Positions 3,088-28,487 of a DNA stretch of 52,921 nucleotides are shown here, one piece after another (positions within the stretch are counted from its first letter, which is position 1; each line of letters opens with the position of its first letter). Position numbers and translations under genes: made by a program. The notes below the pieces were generated by a model. It searched no databases and was not told where the DNA came from. It saw only the letters and a program-made list of their open reading frames with translations. Origin of the DNA: Chara braunii (Eukaryota; Plantae; Charophyceae); assembly GCA_003427395.1 (NCBI GenBank), contig BFEA01000027.1, forward strand, positions 2,536,197-2,589,117. The letters run 5' to 3'.

Positions 3088-3167
3088 AATGTGCGCATTT
3101 TTTGGATGTTATGCTCATGATGGTTCTGTAACGATCTTCTTACGTGCATGAGCGCATAGCGGTGGCC

Positions 3168-4782
3168 TCATCGCGAGAGACTGCCCCGCGGGCAATGGAC
3201 AAGGTGCCTTTGCTGACAATACGAAGTATTGGCAATCGAGCAAGGAAAAAGAAGATAACTTAAAGCGGGTAGCCAGATGGGCAGACTACAAAATGCAGGA
3301 AGATGAGAGTAAGAAGGCAGAAGGGGAGAAGAGGAGGATAGAAGCCGAAAGGAGAAGACAGCAATTGGAAGAAGAGAGACGCAATGAGAAGATTCGAAGA
3401 TTGTTTGTTGAGTCCGAGAGAGGAAAGATGGAGGAATGCGACAAAAGAGACAGGAAGATGGATCCAAAGATCAGGAACGAATTGGAGAGCCAAATGGGAA
3501 GAGTGCAGCAGGAACTTATCCATCCTATGTTCCAGGTTTTCAATTCCTACTCGGACAAGTGAGCGGAAATTGGAGTTACTCTATTCCTATAGGTTCTAGC
3601 TTTGAAGAACGAGCTCATACGCCGGGGATATCCCCCGACGTTGTTCTTCTTCAATGCCCTAGCACCTTTGCTAAGTGCACCAGCGTTCTCAAGAAGCCAT
3701 GGTTGAGGCTACTTGAGAACCTGGTACAATGGGGTAGCAGCACGCGGCTGGAAATCTTTGAGGCAGATGTGGCCTTGAATAAGGACCGTATTTTACGAAA
3801 TAGCCATGTTTTGGTGGGGAGTTTTAGTGTAGAATTAAGATATTTTGAGTAGAAATAAATATTTGCGTGGAAATATGATGTGTAAATAATTATTGCGTAG
3901 AAATTGGATTTTTCACGAGGCCGTTAGTACTGTAGAAATAGAAAATACATATAAATGGCCGCTTTTAAACTGGTCGAAATTTGCAGATGGGATAGGGACT
4001 TTATAGAAATTTGCAGGCTCGGAATAATAAGGACTTTCGTATTTGATCTCCTATAGGTATTTTTTGAAATACGTGCCTGGTTGGCACGCTACAACACGGT
4101 GTTACCGGGCTGCGCCCGCCTAATTCCCAAAGAGTGGGAAAATTGGCTGCATGTTGGATTTTGAAATTGTATAGGTCACGCTGGGTGAGCCACGTAGTAA
4201 GAGTAGAGGCTGCGATCCATGCTGCACGAATTAAGCCAATAGAATCAGAGTAGGAAGATCGATTGTGGGAAGCGAATATCCGCGGAAAAGAGCCCCTAGC
4301 CTATGCATAGTACTATCCACACGTGAAACATGTGGTGAAAGCTGGCCTGAAGGGATAGGCATTGTGTCGACTATTGGAAACTTACGTGGACTGACTATCG
4401 GTAGCCCGTTGAGGGGCCGACACGTAACGGATCATTACGGAGTTCGGCATAACGTCTATGCGACAGAGCCGGTCGTAGCCGTAGTCGCTCGTGGAAGTGC
4501 CCATTGGGATGGGAGTACCGTGCTGGCTAGGCTTACAACTCGATGCACAATATATAGGAGGACAAGGCCGTATTGGTCCTCTATATTCAGTAAGACGGGA
4601 GGATTGTCGACGGGCCGCAAGGTAGGGTCAAGAGGTTAGCCCCCTGAGGAGGATCGGAGCGCAATCGATTGAAACACGTCCGGGAATGTGCGCGTGAGCT
4701 GAGATGAGTATGCGCGGCTATGTATTGAAGAGCTTTCGAAGCGTGTACGAAAGGCTGTTGGCCACTGTTTTCACTATTCACA
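3168..4782 (+). mobile_element. Internally deleted, older Penelope-like element copy (ORF1 fragment fused to RT C-terminus plus terminal repeat)
   Basis: 3168-3455 matches 5178-5480 (GQGAFA..TKYWQS, ADYKMQ, RRQQLEEERR.EKIR). 3458-3780 matches 8999-9364 (MDPKIRNELESQMG vs MEPKVKNELRSQMG). About 4090-4775 matches 9730-10431. Confidence 0.8.
4640..4684 (+). ncRNA. Minimal type-I hammerhead ribozyme motif (slightly degenerate)
   Basis: CCCC-CTGAGGA-G-GATCGG-AGCGCAA-TCGATT-GAAA-C-AC-GTC-CGGG: CUGANGA and GAAA cores, stem II pairing with two G.U wobbles, GUC triplet. Confidence 0.7.
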
Positions 4783-5032
4783 CTCTTCTTCTTCTTCTTC
4801 TTCTTCTTCTTCTTCTTCTTCTTTCGATGCGTGTACGAAAGGCAGTTGGCCACTGTTTTCCACTATTATGTGTAACATGGGAACCGGATGAGGGGAGATG
4901 CTCACACCGGTCGCTATGTCGACGACGTGAATCAGGAGAACGTTGAACGGACCACGTGACAGGAAGACAGCAGCAAGTTAGTTGCATCGACAACAGTTAG
5001 TAGGAGCTGTTTCATCACACGTAAGAAGAAGG

Positions 5033-6463
5033 ATGGACGGAGACAGCCATATGGAGGAGCTATCGAAAAGGTTACTGGTGAAAGGTAACGGAATGGCGCC
5101 TACTGGTCTTGCAAGAGCTGGAGCAGGCGGGGCAGGGAGCTCGATCATCTGTATTAATTGCAACCAAGTTGGCCATATTGCGAGAGATTGTCCGCTGGGC
5201 AAGGGACAAGGAGCCTTTGCGAACAACACGAAGTATTGGCAATCGAGGAAGGAGAATGAGGACAACATAAATCGAGTGGTCATGTGGGCGGACTACAAAA
5301 TGCAGAAGGAAATGGAGGAAGAGGAAAACAAGAAAAGATAGAGGAGGAGAAGAGAAAGGCAGAAGTCGAACAAAGAAGACAACAATTGGAAGAGGAAAGG
5401 CGCGAGGAGAAGATCCGGAGATGTTCGCGGAAATCGAACGAAGAATGATGGAAGAATGCGACAGAAGGGACAAAAAGATTGAAGAGGCGGAATTGCGAAC
5501 GATAGCGGCAGTGTCAAGAGATGTGCGAAATTTGAGGGCTGAGATAAGGACTGAAATCCAAATGATGTTAGCAGTGAACTCCAAGACACCGAAACGAGAC
5601 CGAGATGTACTAGCGAGCGGGCTGGATACTTGTATGATGGAGGAAGAAGTGCTGACAGACGATGGTGCGAGGATACCGCCAAAGAGAGCAAGAGGGAAGA
5701 GAAAGGCAGAAGGAAATGGAGGAAGAGGAAAACAAGAAAAGATAGAGGAGGAGAAGAGAAAGGCAGAAGTCGAACAAAGAAGACAACAATTGGAAGAGGA
5801 AAGGCGCGAGGAGAAGATCCGGAGATGTTCGCGGAAATCGAACGAAGAATGATGGAAGAATGCGACAAAAGGGACAAAAAGATTGAAGAGGCGGAATTGC
5901 GAACGATAGCGGCAGTGTCAAGAGATGTGCGAAATTTGAGGGTTGAGATAAGGACTGAAATCCAAATGATGTTAGCAGTGAACTCCAAGACACCGAAACG
6001 AGACCGAGATGTACTAGCGAGTGGGCTGGATACTTGTATGATGGAGGAAGAAGTGCTGACAGACGATGGTGCGAGGATACCGCCAAAGAGAGCAAGAGGG
6101 AAGAGAACGGCGAAGACTTTCACATCGGTAGACGACTGGGACGAGGAAGCAAGGGTTATGTCAAGGGCAGACTAGGAGAAGAGTTTGAGAAGGAAGGCGT
6201 GCACGCCCACAAGGAACGCCTACGCCGTAAATGAGACCCCTGCATCTCGCAACAGGGGGAACATCGTGCAGAATGTTCAGGAAATCAGAGCTAAGCTCAT
6301 GGTGAAGGAATGGCGTGAAGTCAAGAAGCTTTGTGAGGCGAGAAACATAACCTACATTTCTAAGGAGCAAGGTGTTCGGGAGCTGTTGAATAGATCGGCA
6401 TGGGGTGATGGCGATGTTTTGCTGGAAGAGACATGAGAACAAGAAGACATCCAAGATCAATGA
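5033..6463 (+). pseudogene. Gag-like ORF1 of the element (CCHC zinc knuckle, coiled coil, SAP/HeH-like motif), frameshifted
   Basis: CINCNQVGHIARDC fits C-X2-C-X4-H-X4-C. E/K/R-rich coiled coil, then LMVKEWREVKKLCEARNITYISKEQGVRELL (SAP-like, inferred). Acidic tail ends at TGA 6461. True start uncertain. Confidence 0.7.
5302..6109 (+). repeat. Near-identical 404-bp tandem duplication inside ORF1
   Basis: 5302-5705 is repeated at 5706-6109; ORF starts 5630 and 6034 differ by 404. Confidence 0.92.
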
Positions 6464-9364
6464 CGGTTTGTGCCCCCGGTAAGATTCATCTGGGCTTACA
6501 TTGTCGTACTTTTTTCTTTAAGGGAGACAATATGGGGGCACACAAGAGTTTTGAAGCTTAGACTGATGACTGAGAAGGCCTCCACCGCTTGTTTGGTGCT
6601 ACTAGTACTACGGGACCAGGTTCCATGGGCGAGGAAGATCGTAGACATAGTTCCACAAAATTGGAAGTGGTTCGATTGTAAGCAACCCGTGGTTTATTTT
6701 CTTGTCTCGCCATGGTGTAGAAAGATGTACATCGGTGGCCGGAACACGTTAGATGCACCGAATCTGGTACGGACGGTAAAGCACCACTACTTTACAAGTG
6801 GCTGAGAAAATTTAATTGGTGTAGATACGTCGTTATTCGTGTTGCTACCTCAGAAGTTAGTGGCCTGGAGAGCCTGGAGAAGACGCTCCTCAAAAGATTC
6901 TCACCGTCACTCAACACGCTACGAATGAAACAGAAAGGGAACACAAAGAAGAGGCTGGGAGGGAAAGGCGCTCGCGTAGAGTTGAAGGCAAGGAGAGGGT
7001 GGTCGAAGAGCGGGCACGGATCATCGTTTTTTGGATGGCGCGTAGTCGATTAGTGAATACTGGTTTAAGAATTTGTCTAGACTCGGCCTATAAGGAGGGT
7101 AAGAAGCAGATCCAGATCATTAGTGAAGGAGGTAGAGTCTGGGGGGAAGACTGGTCGCTAGTAAAGAAATTGTTTGGTACCTTGACTGTCGTGACATAGA
7201 CAGGAAAGGTAGCATTAGCCCAGTTGAGAGCCTGTTTTGAGGAGGGAGGCAGTTTCTGGATCGCCCCCATCGTCATTACACAGAACGCAAGGGACAAAGG
7301 GAAAGGTTACCTGCGGCAGCTCTTGGAGATGCCTTTCAAACGGAAAGAATTGTCGCGCATGTCGGTAGATAAACTTATGCATCTCTATAGTTGCGCGGGG
7401 ACATTTAGAGAGAAGGGAAAGAGGAAACTGATAAAGGATTTCCTGGGTAAGGCAGTGGGAAAGAAGGCTTGTGTGAATATCCGGAAGAAGATCACTGTGC
7501 AAGTTAGGTACAGGAATAGAGTAAGGAAGAGTGGCATTAGGAGCGTTCTCGTCACAAATATTTAGAGTTGTGGATTGCATCTCGCGATTGCAGGGATCTT
7601 CAAAAGCAAGGCGAGAGTAGTATGGAGAAGAAATAGAAATGTAACGTAGATCGTATGTAACTACAAGCAGTTGAGTAAGAAACCAGAGTTACCGTGTGCG
7701 TGTAAGCAACATGACTTACCTATCGTTAGTGGCCACGTGATCACAAGGGTAGCCGATGTCCCAGGGCTCCCAGCCCTGGTTCACAATGGGAAAAACGTGG
7801 TCCGCCCCAAGTGTGAGACAACAAGGGAGGAAGTCAGCAGCAGCATACGACTTGCGCTAATAGCAGTGCTTGGGAGTTGGTTTGATAAGCAATTGCCCGA
7901 TTTCCAAACTAGCTCTTGTTCTCGTCAGAACGGAATGAACGGTGCGGCGCGGACGAAGGGGTAGTCTACGCCATCAAGAGACGTTATAAGGATCTGGTAA
8001 TTACGCAGGTTGACAGGAACGGGGGAGATCTGGTGCTGATGTGCCCTTCTTCAGACCAACATGGCTTGGACAAAATGTTCACCTGGAGTGCAGCCTATGA
8101 TGTGGTTAGTCGCGGCGAAGCGGAAACATTGAAGGAGATGAAGCGCAAATTTGTAAGTCTTGATTTGCACAAGCTGGTGAACCGGAACTTGAAGGGGAAG
8201 ATCGGTAGTCCGTACGTACTACCCAAGCACAAGGATCTTGAACGGTGGCGACCCATAGCTCCAGCTTACAGCGAACCCACGATGACAGGCAGGCGTTGGA
8301 TCGCAAGGGCGCTCAACTACTTATTGGAGAAGCTCCCAGGAGCAAAACATTTCAACCTCAATGCGACAGCCTCGCTCAAGCAAAATTTGAAGAAAGCTGA
8401 GAAGAAGCTTCACTTATTCGGAGGTGAGACTGACGATATGCGGGGGATTCGACATTAAAGAGATGTTTACATCCCTTTCGCATGCGGCTATCATGGAGGC
8501 CTTATCCTGGTTGTTGGGCGGATGGGAGACGGTATGCAAAAGAAGAAAGCAGGTTTTCCTCGGCGTGAAATTGTTTGGGAAAGGCTACGTTAAGTTCCCA
8601 TTCAGTTTTATTCGGAGCTTTGTAAGCTTCGAACTGCAGCACAGCTACACCAAGTGTAGAGGGAAGCTGTTCAGACAAGTCATTGGAGTACCAATGGGGA
8701 GGAATTCCAGCCCACCATTGGCTTGCCTGCTATGTGCAAAGTACGAAGGAGTGTTCCTGAAGTCATTTGGAAGTGACCGCAAGCTCGTCCATGGAGTAAG
8801 GTTCATGGACGATGCGGTATTGGCAGTTGCATTCAACAGAAGGAAAGGAGGGTCAGTCAGTAAGGCGCTGGAGATAATGGAGAAGTTCCGGACTGCTACG
8901 GGGATAAGCTATCATTAGTCCGTACAGATGACGGATCTAACACCGTCGAATTCGTTGGGGCAAGGATTACGAACGTGCCAGGAAAAACCAAGTTCCTCAT
9001 GGAACCTAAGGTCAAGAATGAACTGAGGAGCCAGATGGGAGGAGTGCGGCAGAAACTCGCTCATCGATGTTTCCTGGATTTTGACTCCTACTCCGACAAG
9101 CGTGCGAAGATCGGGGTTGTGATCGGCAGTCTCTGCCGTATCCAACAAATGGCGAACAACGAGAGTACGCTAATCTTACCAGTTCTAGCAATAAAGAACG
9201 AGCTCTCACGCCGGGGATACCCCCCGGCGTTCTTCTTCAAAGCCCTAGCACGATTTGCTAAGGGCACTGGAGTTTTGAAGGAGCCCTGGATGAGGCTACT
9301 TGAGAACCTGGTACACTGGGATAACAGTGCGCGACCGAAAATTTTGTGGCGAATGCAGCCTTGA
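6464..9364 (+). pseudogene. GIY-YIG endonuclease plus Penelope-type reverse transcriptase (disrupted)
   Basis: PVVYFLVSPWCRKMYIG, then after a frameshift EHVRC..LYKWL..LESLEKTLLKRFSPSLN (GIY-YIG). Linker PCACKQ..GHV. RT motifs YVLPKHKD..RPI, FDIKEMFTSL, RQVIGVPMGRNSSPPLA and RFMDD. C-terminal ELSRRGYP. Confidence 0.9.
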
Positions 9365-10294
9365 ACCAGGCACCGTAATTACGGAATTTGCTTGGATTGT
9401 AGCGAGATTTTTTTCGAAATTAGGGATTAAAGTAGGATTTGTCTGAGCAGCGGGTGGAAAATTTTGCAGTAGACCGGTTCTGCCGTTCAATTTAAAAATT
9501 GGCCGCGTAATTAGCAGTAAGATGTTACACCATAGGATATTTTGGAGGCCCGTTTCTCAAACGGCTTGCGTAGGACTTTATTAAAAAAGCTAGCGGGCGA
9601 GATAGGAATTCCTAGGGTATCTTGTAAATTAAAGGTTGGATGTTTATTTGAATTTGAATTTTTAACTTTAGGCGCACGTGGCACCGTTTATTTTGGTGGC
9701 AGACCCCACTGCCAGTTAGGCATCGGAGTCACGGTGCTACTGGACAGTACCCGCCTAATCTCTGAAGCGGGAATTCGGACTGCATGGCGAGTTTGAATTT
9801 GAAAAAGTCGCACACGGCATGTGTGTAACTGACTGAACCGGGCCATGTAATAGGGATAGAGCCTGCGATCCATGCGACACGGATCAGTCCAATAGGAATT
9901 AAGGTGTAGGAATCGAAGGAGGCATATGAACGTTGGAAAGACTAGGAGTGCGCCTAGCCAGCATAGTACCCCGTACATGTGATACATGCGGCGAAAACTA
10001 GTCCTTAGGTGTAGATAATATGTCGAGGATTGCAAACCTACGTGGATTGACTATCTGCGGCCCGTTGAGGGGCTGACACATAACTGATTCTCACCGAGCT
10101 CGATATAACGTCTATACGGCAAGGCAGTCGTAGCTGTAGTCGCTTGTGGAAGTGCCCGTTGGGGTGGGAGTACCGTGCATGCTAGGATGACTACTCGATG
10201 GACAGCATATAGGAGGACAAGGCCGTATCGGTCCTCTATACTCAGTAAGATGGGAGGATAGACGGTGGTGCCGCAAGGCGGGGAATGAGGATAG

Positions 10295-10339
10295 CCCCCT
10301 GAGGATGATCGGAGCGCAACCGATCGAAACACGTCGGGG
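10295..10339 (+). ncRNA. Minimal type-I hammerhead ribozyme with intact core
   Basis: Stem I CCCC(10295-98)/GGGG(10336-39); CUGAGGA 10299-10305; stem II GAUCGG/CCGAUC with loop AGCGCAA; GAAA 10326-29; vestigial stem III; GUC with predicted cleavage after C10335. Confidence 0.85.
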
Positions 10340-10769
10340 ATTGTGCACGAGAGCTGAGACGAGTATGTGCGGCTTTGTAATGAAGAGCTTTCGATGCGTG
10401 TACGAAAGGCAGCTGGCCACTGTTTTCCACTCTTCTTCTTCTTCTTCTTCTTCTTGGAGCTTTGACTATGTCCGTGCAGATGTGATATTCACAATCTGTT
10501 TATGAATGGACACGTGGGGGAGTTGGCCTCGCCATATTCATCTCAAAGCAATTCTTCTTCTGCTTCTTCTCCTGGTTTTTCTTCTTCTGGGTCTTCTTCT
10601 TCTTCTTCTTCTCTTGGCGTCACGAACTGGATGATTTTCGATGAGCCTTCCGCTTGGCAGGCATGATGAAAGATCTCTCCGCTCCTCTTATGCCTTATTC
10701 TTTCTGGTCTGTTTTCGTTTCTTTCTTTCGTGTCCGCCTTGCGTCTGATGGTTCTGTCCCCTTCAATTT

Positions 10770-26828: not shown

Positions 26829-28487
26829 GCGCGCATACAGTTAAGAGCCACTGGGAGGAGTGTGGACTGAGCCACCGGGCTCACGGGACTAGCAGGCTCA
26901 GCGGTCGGGAGCACACCAATCTTCCCCGCGAATTGGCGCGGTGATTGGGTTTTTCCTTTTTCTTTTCTTTTCTTCTTTTTTTCCCCTTTTTTTTCTTTTT
27001 TCCTTCTCTTGTTTTCTTTTTTTCTTTTTTTCTTTTTTTCTTTTTTTTTTCTTTTTTTCTTTTTCTCCCCCCTTTTTTTTTCCTTTTTCTGATTTCCTTC
27101 TCTTCCTTTTTCTGGCCCCTTTTTCCGTTCCCTTTTTTTTCTTCTTCTTTTTTTGTTGTTCTTTTTTTATTTTCGCTATGAACTGGGCTAATAAAAGACG
27201 TTCTGGGGCATTTTTTTGCCACTCAATCCCCCCCTGTGTGCTATAATCAACCAGGTACAGACGGCGGGAGCATCTCGCTCTCGGATTATGACGAGGACAG
27301 TTTACTACGAGGATGTGGGACGCGTGGGACCACAGACAGACCCCTGTTGCATTGACCCTAGGTTCCTTTTCCCCCCCCTCTTTTTCCTTGTTCCTTGTTG
27401 TGTTTTCTTTTTTTACTTTTTTCCTTTTTTCCTTTTTTCTGATAACTTTTTTTGACCATAGGATCGGGGTACTAAACGGATGGATAGGAGTGGTAGCTTC
27501 CAGCATAAGATTGCTATTCCTAGTTGGGCACCGTGACTATTTCAGAAAAGAACACAAACATTTTATTCATCGGACCACCGTGCGGTAATCATTTCTGACA
27601 ACTGGTAGTGCATGGTGCGTTCCGGTTTTGCGCTGTGCGATGGTTGGGCTGGATAGTGAGCGGTATGGACTTCTTCGCCAACTTGGACCTAGAGGAGGAA
27701 CAGCAGGAACTCGAGGAAGTGGTAATGTCCCCGACGAGCCGCACTCTCCCCGACCAGGCCCTCGCAACCCCATGCCTAGGCACGCCCTAACCAAGCGCCA
27801 TGCAGACCGCTTCCACCTGCCCCGCCGAATCTGCTGCGCCTCACCCATGCCCCCTCGTTGGTAGCATTGTCTTCTCGCTCCCCTTCCTCCTTGCGCTGCT
27901 CCCGAATCTCGCCATAGCCTGCACGCTCCTTGCTGCATGTCTCTCCGAGCAAGTGTTTCTTCGTCTTTCCGCTAGGCGCTTTGCGCCGCTGATCGGAAGC
28001 GTCATTTGCTTCCTGACACTCTTCCTCGCATGCTGCTGCTGCCTTTTCTTTGAGCTTGGCGCCGCGCGAGGATTTTCGGTCTAGCTAGGAAGAGCGGCAT
28101 GGAGCGGAGCGATGGAGCATAGGGCAGCAGCCGAGGCCTCGTCTTGTGCTTTTTTGGCATTTTTCTCCTTCCTCTCCTTCCTCTCCTTCCTCTCCTTTTT
28201 CTGCTTCATCCACTCCCTTCCCTATCCCCTACCGAATGGACCCCCCTTCCCCCTCTCCCCCTTGACAGAACTCCCCCCTCGACCCCAAAACCGACCATCA
28301 TCCTTGAATCGCAACACCCCCCCTCGCCCCCCCTCACCCCCATCGCCTTCCAAAGATCATGGAAGATGTTGCCCCCTCTGATGACGCCCCACGTAGCATG
28401 GGGCAGAAAAGCGCTTCAGGGTTTTGCCACACCCTTCCCGCAGTTTCGGCGAGATGATCCGCGCGGATGCAGGAGCGCTTTGGATCT

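Follow-up and report, generated by a model that had tools for sequence, protein, structure and literature searches.

Almost nothing has been established about how Penelope-like elements (PLEs) express and dose their enzymes. Animal PLEs with a frameshift-separated first open reading frame (ORF1) go by the name Athena. That separation involves a frameshift and a pseudoknot (PMC8557442, legend to Fig. 1), and a gag-like upstream ORF, with a zf-CCHC domain in the second Chara type, has been published for the Chlamys elements of Chara (PMC8557442). Here we analyse a PLE that matches this second type and extends over approximately 3577–10455 of a 52,921-nt stretch of the Chara braunii genome (assembly GCA_003427395.1, contig BFEA01000027.1, positions 2,536,197–2,589,117 of the forward strand; hereafter the window). 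Because the upstream ORF is already on record, the novelty lies not in ORF1 itself but in its junction with the endonuclease (EN), where an in-frame UGA is followed by a predicted hairpin. As the first-pass annotation of this DNA had proposed, the junction probably directs programmed UGA readthrough, predicted to yield abundant free ORF1 protein and a rarer fusion of ORF1 with EN and reverse transcriptase (RT). At the sequence level, this reading is based on the in-frame geometry, a stop common to copies, the predicted stem and a conserved protein segment that precedes the first ATG. The available text of PMC8557442, which uses the term 'upstream ORF' for ORF1, has no match for 'readthrough' or 'read-through', and literature searches, with thin coverage of subscription papers, returned no report of readthrough in PLEs or in retroelements lacking long terminal repeats (LTRs).

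The nearest precedents lie in viruses and LTR elements. A UGA-CGG or UGA-CUA readthrough signal with an extended 3′ stem is described in alphaviruses, Virgaviridae and coltiviruses; in Virgaviridae it reads xxA-stop-CGx-xxx-xxG followed by an 8-nt spacer and the stem, and a UGA-UGG variant is recorded in one furovirus (PMC3159437). The window's junction shares with these signals UGA-CGG, an A at −1, a spacer of about 8 nt and, within about 80–140 nt, a basal stem whose loop varies, but the viral signals lie in RNA-virus genes and are accompanied by synonymous-site statistics and some experiments (PMC3159437), whereas the signal in the window lies in a retroelement and is purely a prediction. 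Gag-Pol readthrough is also known from murine leukaemia virus (MuLV) and from the LTR retrotransposons Tca2, Tj1, Tcry1 and Tosmo1-3 (PMC10085805, PMC2194720; also PMC5009743). In both settings a gag-like and an enzyme ORF stand in frame across one stop, with the same ratio logic; MuLV and LTR elements differ in having protease and integrase and, in MuLV, UAG plus a pseudoknot (PMC10085805, PMC2194720), whereas the window's PLE has no protease, so that a fusion would remain uncut. Animal PLEs and Naiad selenoproteins likewise recode at the ORF1 junction or at a UGA (PMC8557442), but do so by frameshifting or selenocysteine insertion, whereas near-cognate readthrough is proposed here. The features of the junction are as follows.

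6434–6436, forward strand: copy-specific TGA; TGG, TGC or a Tyr codon in other copies
6461–6463, forward strand: UGA stop of ORF1, shared among copies and a candidate site of readthrough; seen in contigs, and proteins P0001 and P0006 end here
6464–6472, forward strand: 3′ context CGG-TTT-GTG, fitting xxA-stop-CGx-xxx-xxG (PMC3159437)
6464–6565, forward strand: conserved protein segment of 34 codons (W..LR..WG helix), from the stop to the first in-frame ATG at 6566
6469–6477, forward strand: predicted basal stem, 5′ arm; exact reverse complement of 6534–6542, with no variant among the listed rows of the contig tables
6479–6499, forward strand: inner hairpin 1; predicted fold, varying among copies
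6500–6531, forward strand: inner hairpin 2; predicted pairs 6500–6505/6526–6531
6534–6542, forward strand: basal stem, 3′ arm; predicted fold, with conservation visible only in part

ORF1 ends in CAA-TGA-CGG at 6458–6466, and from 6464 no stop interrupts the frame up to the end of PVVYFLVSPWCRKMYIG (6686–6736), directly after which the window copy has a frameshift; the sequence thus bears out the earlier description of a TGA at 6461–6463 followed in frame by the GIY-YIG motif. An ATG at 6460–6462, absent from that description, overlaps the stop in the −1 frame. Among the Chara proteins that we retrieved by protein searches (P0001–P0011 being among their labels), P0001 and P0006 are the only two of the same family that cover codon 6461, and both terminate exactly there, 28 residues past a common anchor motif. 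The gene models P0002–P0005 and P0010, of the same family or close to it, depart from the tail earlier, P0011 from Chara vulgaris stops six residues later after a similar acidic tail, and the post-stop peptide is reached by 0 of 13 retrieved proteins. P0011 appears to be an intact, transcript-encoded ORF1 of a related family. DNA contigs from four runs, all of one sample, gave 13, 11, 11 and 12 contigs over 6430–6556; by depth accounting, one of the nine contigs of run X1 that cover codon 6461 has TGG in place of TGA, through a change at 6463. The TGA at 6461 therefore looks like the true ORF1 stop of this family. The second in-frame TGA that had been flagged at 6434 is present at 6434–6436, and, in line with the expectation that it would be a sense codon in other copies, 6436 is changed from A to G (giving TGG) in three contigs of run X1 and two of X4, and related proteins have Trp (3 of 4) or Tyr (1 of 4) at this codon. 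Because it is a sense codon in these contigs and proteins, the TGA at 6434 is, on sequence grounds, decay.

Selenocysteine could also be inserted at the UGA at 6461, as proposed for Naiad PLEs, which carry an in-frame UGA and a selenocysteine insertion sequence (SECIS; PMC8557442), and Charophyceae have the complete selenocysteine machinery (PMC6627142). We regard this as exceedingly improbable: the codon lies in a linker with no conserved Cys, and an Rfam scan reported no SECIS, with one weak candidate (−9.4 kcal/mol) in a crude motif scan of the 3′ untranslated region (UTR).

The in-frame ATGs after the stop are at 6566 (the first, also noted earlier as preceding the GIY-YIG motif) and 6725. 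Three proteins of sister families match the 34 codons that separate the stop from ATG 6566 (E = 2e-5, 5e-5 and 9e-4), and a helix is predicted in residues 7–24 of P0008, with a predicted local distance difference test (pLDDT) score of about 82 at residues 11–20 of an AlphaFold model that is poor overall (pLDDT 52.9, predicted template modelling (pTM) score 0.29). A search of the PDB with this model gave no match at E ≤ 0.001, and a separate search with the post-stop peptide matched 0 of 16 candidates. Because these conserved, helix-predicted codons precede ATG 6566, translation most likely enters the EN frame upstream of it.

The same segment bears on whether an intron could remove the stop and join ORF1 to EN, or whether a shorter mRNA from an internal promoter could start at ATG 6566. 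PLEs retain introns (PMC8557442), Tca2 has a junction promoter (PMC2194720), a pyrimidine-rich AG at 6522 (12 of 14 pyrimidines) would make a good acceptor, with another at 6483, and the gene models P0007 and P0009 span the junction through apparent predicted introns; a Met near 6563–6566 is, moreover, kept in the window's family, as read from contig loose ends. However, the conserved W..LR helix would be lost both by splicing to 6522 and by a start at 6566, the donors in matching phase (6199 and 6385) are weak, the AG at 6482–6483 is altered in three to six contigs per run, and P0007 and P0009 join at different residues. No splice joints were listed among the contigs covering the site, all of which are DNA; about 6% of RNA run X11 yielded 0 matching reads and run X5 one contig, downstream of the junction, which does not bear on expression or splicing. 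The C. vulgaris transcript protein P0011 stops at an ORF1 stop, and splicing would not require the shared frame. We consider splicing or a shorter transcript unlikely. A 44-nt intron at 6479–6522 was rejected, as it lies 3′ of the stop.

The hairpin described in the first-pass annotation largely held up. The predicted basal stem is a perfect 9 bp (6469–6477 being the exact reverse complement of 6534–6542) with pair probabilities of 0.79–1.0, and the inner ATTGTC/GACAAT stem, at 6500–6505/6526–6531, has probabilities of 0.84–1.0. The additional G.U pair (6478–6533) is present in the minimum-free-energy structure but has a probability <0.5, and the inner hairpin at 6479–6499, which had not been recorded, makes the predicted fold a three-way junction. 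Pairing is predicted from +6 and the G-C core from +9, which puts the G-C-rich part of the stem about 8 nt away from the stop. The junction folds more stably than shuffled sequences (z = −3.14; 1 of 200 shuffles as stable), and perfect 9-bp stems starting 4–12 nt after a position occur at 27 of 4,310 element positions, a count that includes neighbours of the junction. Most of the strongest folds of the element lie in the 3′ region of the RT (8545–8856 and 9115–9351; z to −5.5) and exceed the junction hairpin.

In the contig table for 6430–6556, differences closer than about 31 nt to a contig end are not shown, which hides the 3′ arm there; of its 18 variant positions, 17 fall in 6482–6525 and the other is the TGA-to-TGG change at 6463. 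Among the best 40 of 127 rows of a wider variant list, 0 of 45 positions vary in 6461–6481 plus 6526–6549 versus 38 of 344 elsewhere (p = 0.007, with the regions chosen post hoc). Because of the hidden ends, a Fisher test on the 6430–6556 table alone (0/18 versus 17/44, p = 0.001) is biased, and it carries no weight here. In one contig loose end, read by hand, 6505 and 6526 change together from C-G to U-A and 6527 changes a U-A pair to U.G, so that the inner stem is kept. No net frameshift was seen among contigs at the junction.

We compared the junction with the Chlamys consensus sequences in the supplement of PMC8557442, read by eye from the material available. Chlamys-2, -3 and -5_cBra share with the window's element a zinc-knuckle ORF1, an N-terminal GIY-YIG domain, CxC, RT, pseudo-LTR (pLTR), hammerhead and microsatellite neighbour (PMC8557442), and Chlamys-5_cBra also has the same in-frame TGA. 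Its consensus has an acidic ORF1 tail and a single in-frame TGA, after which no Met occurs up to the end of the EN domain; its post-stop peptide aligns with that of the window without gaps, the conserved Trp codon being at +11 versus +10. A perfect 8-bp stem at +8 to +15/+74 to +81, with a palindromic hexamer as its core, parallels the window's stem at +6 to +14/+71 to +79, although both bases and amino acids differ; the expectation that the stem would be kept is thus favoured by a stem of other sequence at the same place. Stems of this geometry are found at 0 of 4,269 other element positions and at 101 of 52,758 window positions. We regard the Chlamys-5_cBra junction, as a consensus sequence, as the strongest evidence for the proposed readthrough. 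The frame could also match by chance, with the stem serving RNA packaging or a promoter or arising as a side effect of Pro and Trp-Gly codons: two ORFs share a frame one time in three, and other parts of the element fold more strongly. Chance would, however, leave unexplained both how Chlamys-5 produces an EN without an ATG and why two stems that differ in sequence are equally far from their stops, and we judge it very unlikely.

Not all of the earlier expectations extend across the sister families. The stop is shared in the window's family, apart from the one X1 contig with TGG, but the CGG that follows it is not universal, the context in Chlamys-5_cBra being AAT-TGA-TGG. Likewise, ORF1 shares its frame with EN-RT in the window's family and in the Chlamys-5_cBra consensus but not in Chlamys-2_cBra, in which EN-RT lies in the +1 frame, so that readthrough cannot be a rule for the whole group. 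The junction of the Chlamys-3_cBra consensus is degenerate, and Chlamys-1_bBra has its own Met. Two file lengths in the PMC8557442 supplement (1,385 and 1,417 letters) suggest that the authors joined both ORFs. An X in the published Chlamys-5 protein was considered as a mark of the junction and rejected, being an ambiguous base. The Chlamys-2_cBra consensus also has a TGA in the ORF2 frame, 12 codons upstream of the conserved Trp, with a possible hairpin after it (by eye); this arrangement could be left over from an in-frame junction.

These differing frames (0, +1 and −1) could be accommodated if ribosomes terminated and then restarted near the UGA, at the overlapping AUG or the near-cognate GUG at 6470, with EN-RT made as a separate protein. 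The hairpin would assist as in SART1, which requires structure downstream of its stop-start overlap and likewise has a retroelement ORF1/ORF2 junction with downstream RNA structure (PMC3894237, PMC10275272). The ATGA overlap at 6460–6463 fits this reinitiation, and the N-terminal peptide of P0008 matches the −1 frame start and runs on into EN. In SART1, however, the AUG is in the ORF2 frame, whereas the overlapping AUG of the window (6460) is out of frame, possibly in frame in P0008; in the window's family it opens a dead-end frame of 33 codons, with no net frameshift among contigs, and Chlamys-5 has no ATG in its EN frame. As for the start of P0008, a decayed copy may have lost 1 nt, letting the gene finder take that ATG. 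Reinitiation therefore appears rather unlikely.

In the readthrough that we favour, ORF1 and the EN-RT gene of this family lie in one frame with a single UGA between them and a predicted hairpin after it, and ribosomes would read through at a low rate. The stem, lying about 8 nt downstream of the UGA where mRNA enters the ribosome, would form in vivo and slow termination, which may let a near-cognate tRNA insert at the UGA. Near-cognate tRNAs for UGA are those for Trp, Cys or Arg. The readthrough rate would set the ratio of ORF1 to RT, as for Gag to Gag-Pol. More broadly, and with somewhat less assurance, we lean towards the view that the target-primed Chlamys elements of Chara independently reached the retroviral gag-pol design. 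EN-RT would then be produced solely by readthrough, as an uncut fusion to a zinc-knuckle ORF1; the UGA-plus-stem signal, of plant-virus type, would be conserved across families, and sister families would have moved to a +1 shift or to an overlap of stop and start.

Several observations weigh against readthrough. The hairpin window ranks only 15th of 288 element windows by z-score, which means that the hairpin by itself is not exceptional, and the conserved PP and WG residues alone could yield the C- and G-runs of the family. The first two bases of the stop are visible in only two to three other contigs per run, and 87 of the 127 rows of the wider variant list lie outside the best 40. The +1-frame EN-RT of Chlamys-2_cBra overlaps ORF1 by about 30 nt with no Met before EN, and no matching stem was seen by eye in this consensus. 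The first residues of P0008, MTVSTPAK, resemble what the stop-overlapping ATG of the window encodes in the −1 frame, and the Met near 6563–6566, as noted above, is retained. Finally, the similar stop-plus-structure junction of Tca2 failed to direct readthrough in a reporter (PMC2194720).

If readthrough does operate here, the junction would be a compact recoding signal of 80 nt that extends the plant-virus stop-plus-stem signal to another class of retroelement. It would account for the endonuclease without a start codon in two published Chara families, and would mean that full-length proteins of high-copy Chlamys elements are mis-annotated as spliced genes. Closely related families that differ in the frame of this junction would make up a natural series for the replacement of recoding signals.

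The element as a whole is, by its sequence, a decayed copy of a Chara Chlamys-type PLE with a zinc-knuckle ORF1 and hammerheads, and all 12 protein-search matches came from Chara (11 from C. braunii and 1 from a C. vulgaris transcriptome). Its order is a pLTR with a hammerhead motif, zf-CCHC ORF1, GIY-YIG, CxC, RT, pLTR and a (CTT)n tract:

3577–4808, forward strand: 5′ pseudo-LTR, 69% identical to 9166–10455; RT tail and 3′ UTR, both from a partial copy upstream
4640–4684, forward strand: hammerhead-ribozyme-like motif in the 5′ pLTR, with CTGA-N-GA core, stem II and GAAA (pattern scan, stems by eye)
5093–6463, forward strand: ORF1, gag-like, with zf-CCHC at about 5147–5194 (PF00098, E = 1.3e-6), a coiled-coil region and an acidic tail
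6686–6915, forward strand: GIY-YIG endonuclease, N-terminal to the RT, with a frameshift near 6735 in the window copy
7695–7703, forward strand: CxC motif between EN and RT (ELPCACK, from the translation), of Naiad/Chlamys type
7919–9364, forward strand: RT and thumb (RVT_1, E = 5.8e-4), with frameshifts near 8420 and 8895
9166–10455, forward strand: 3′ pseudo-LTR, with a hammerhead motif at 10295–10339 (pattern and eye) and the (CTT)n tract at its end

The zf-CCHC match confirms the gag-like ORF of the first-pass annotation, and its start codon is inferred at 5093 by comparison with P0005. The decay noted there is also evident: the window copy is dead, with five further stops (6173, 6434, 7197, 7563 and 7647, in the stretches checked) and several frameshifts. 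Its ORF1 is disrupted by a 404-nt duplication, frameshifts and the stops at 6173 and 6434, with an extra TAG at 5339 near the beginning of the duplicated block. The two tandem copies (5298–5712 and 5702–6115) are 98.6% identical, which points to a recent event or an assembly artefact. In the EN of the window copy, read from the translation, H, E and N are visible and neither CCHH nor CX2-5CxxC fingers are found; the R falls at the frameshift and is present in P0008. Since the element is, by eye, unlike the Chlamys-2, -3 and -5_cBra consensuses, it seems to represent an uncatalogued Chlamys family, set apart from these three by sequence.

An Rfam scan left the hammerhead motif at 4640–4684 unreported and gave nothing meaningful overall. 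No second ORF1/EN junction was found within the 52,921-nt window, and no related loci were found in viral contigs, metagenome contigs or prokaryote genomes. Two metagenome matches to the junction pattern were rejected as unrelated by blastn and tblastn, and appear tRNA-like by eye. In the upstream partial copy (3122–3801), the 5′ part of ORF1 is fused directly to the 3′ end of the RT by an internal deletion, forming the 5′ pLTR. Elsewhere in the window, a hammerhead motif at 28374–28420, nearly identical to that of PLE-X1_cBra (PMC8557442, File S2), points to a second, EN-less PLE remnant, and tandem arrays occupy 5–785 and 2018–2217, with periods of 21/93 nt and 25 nt, respectively.

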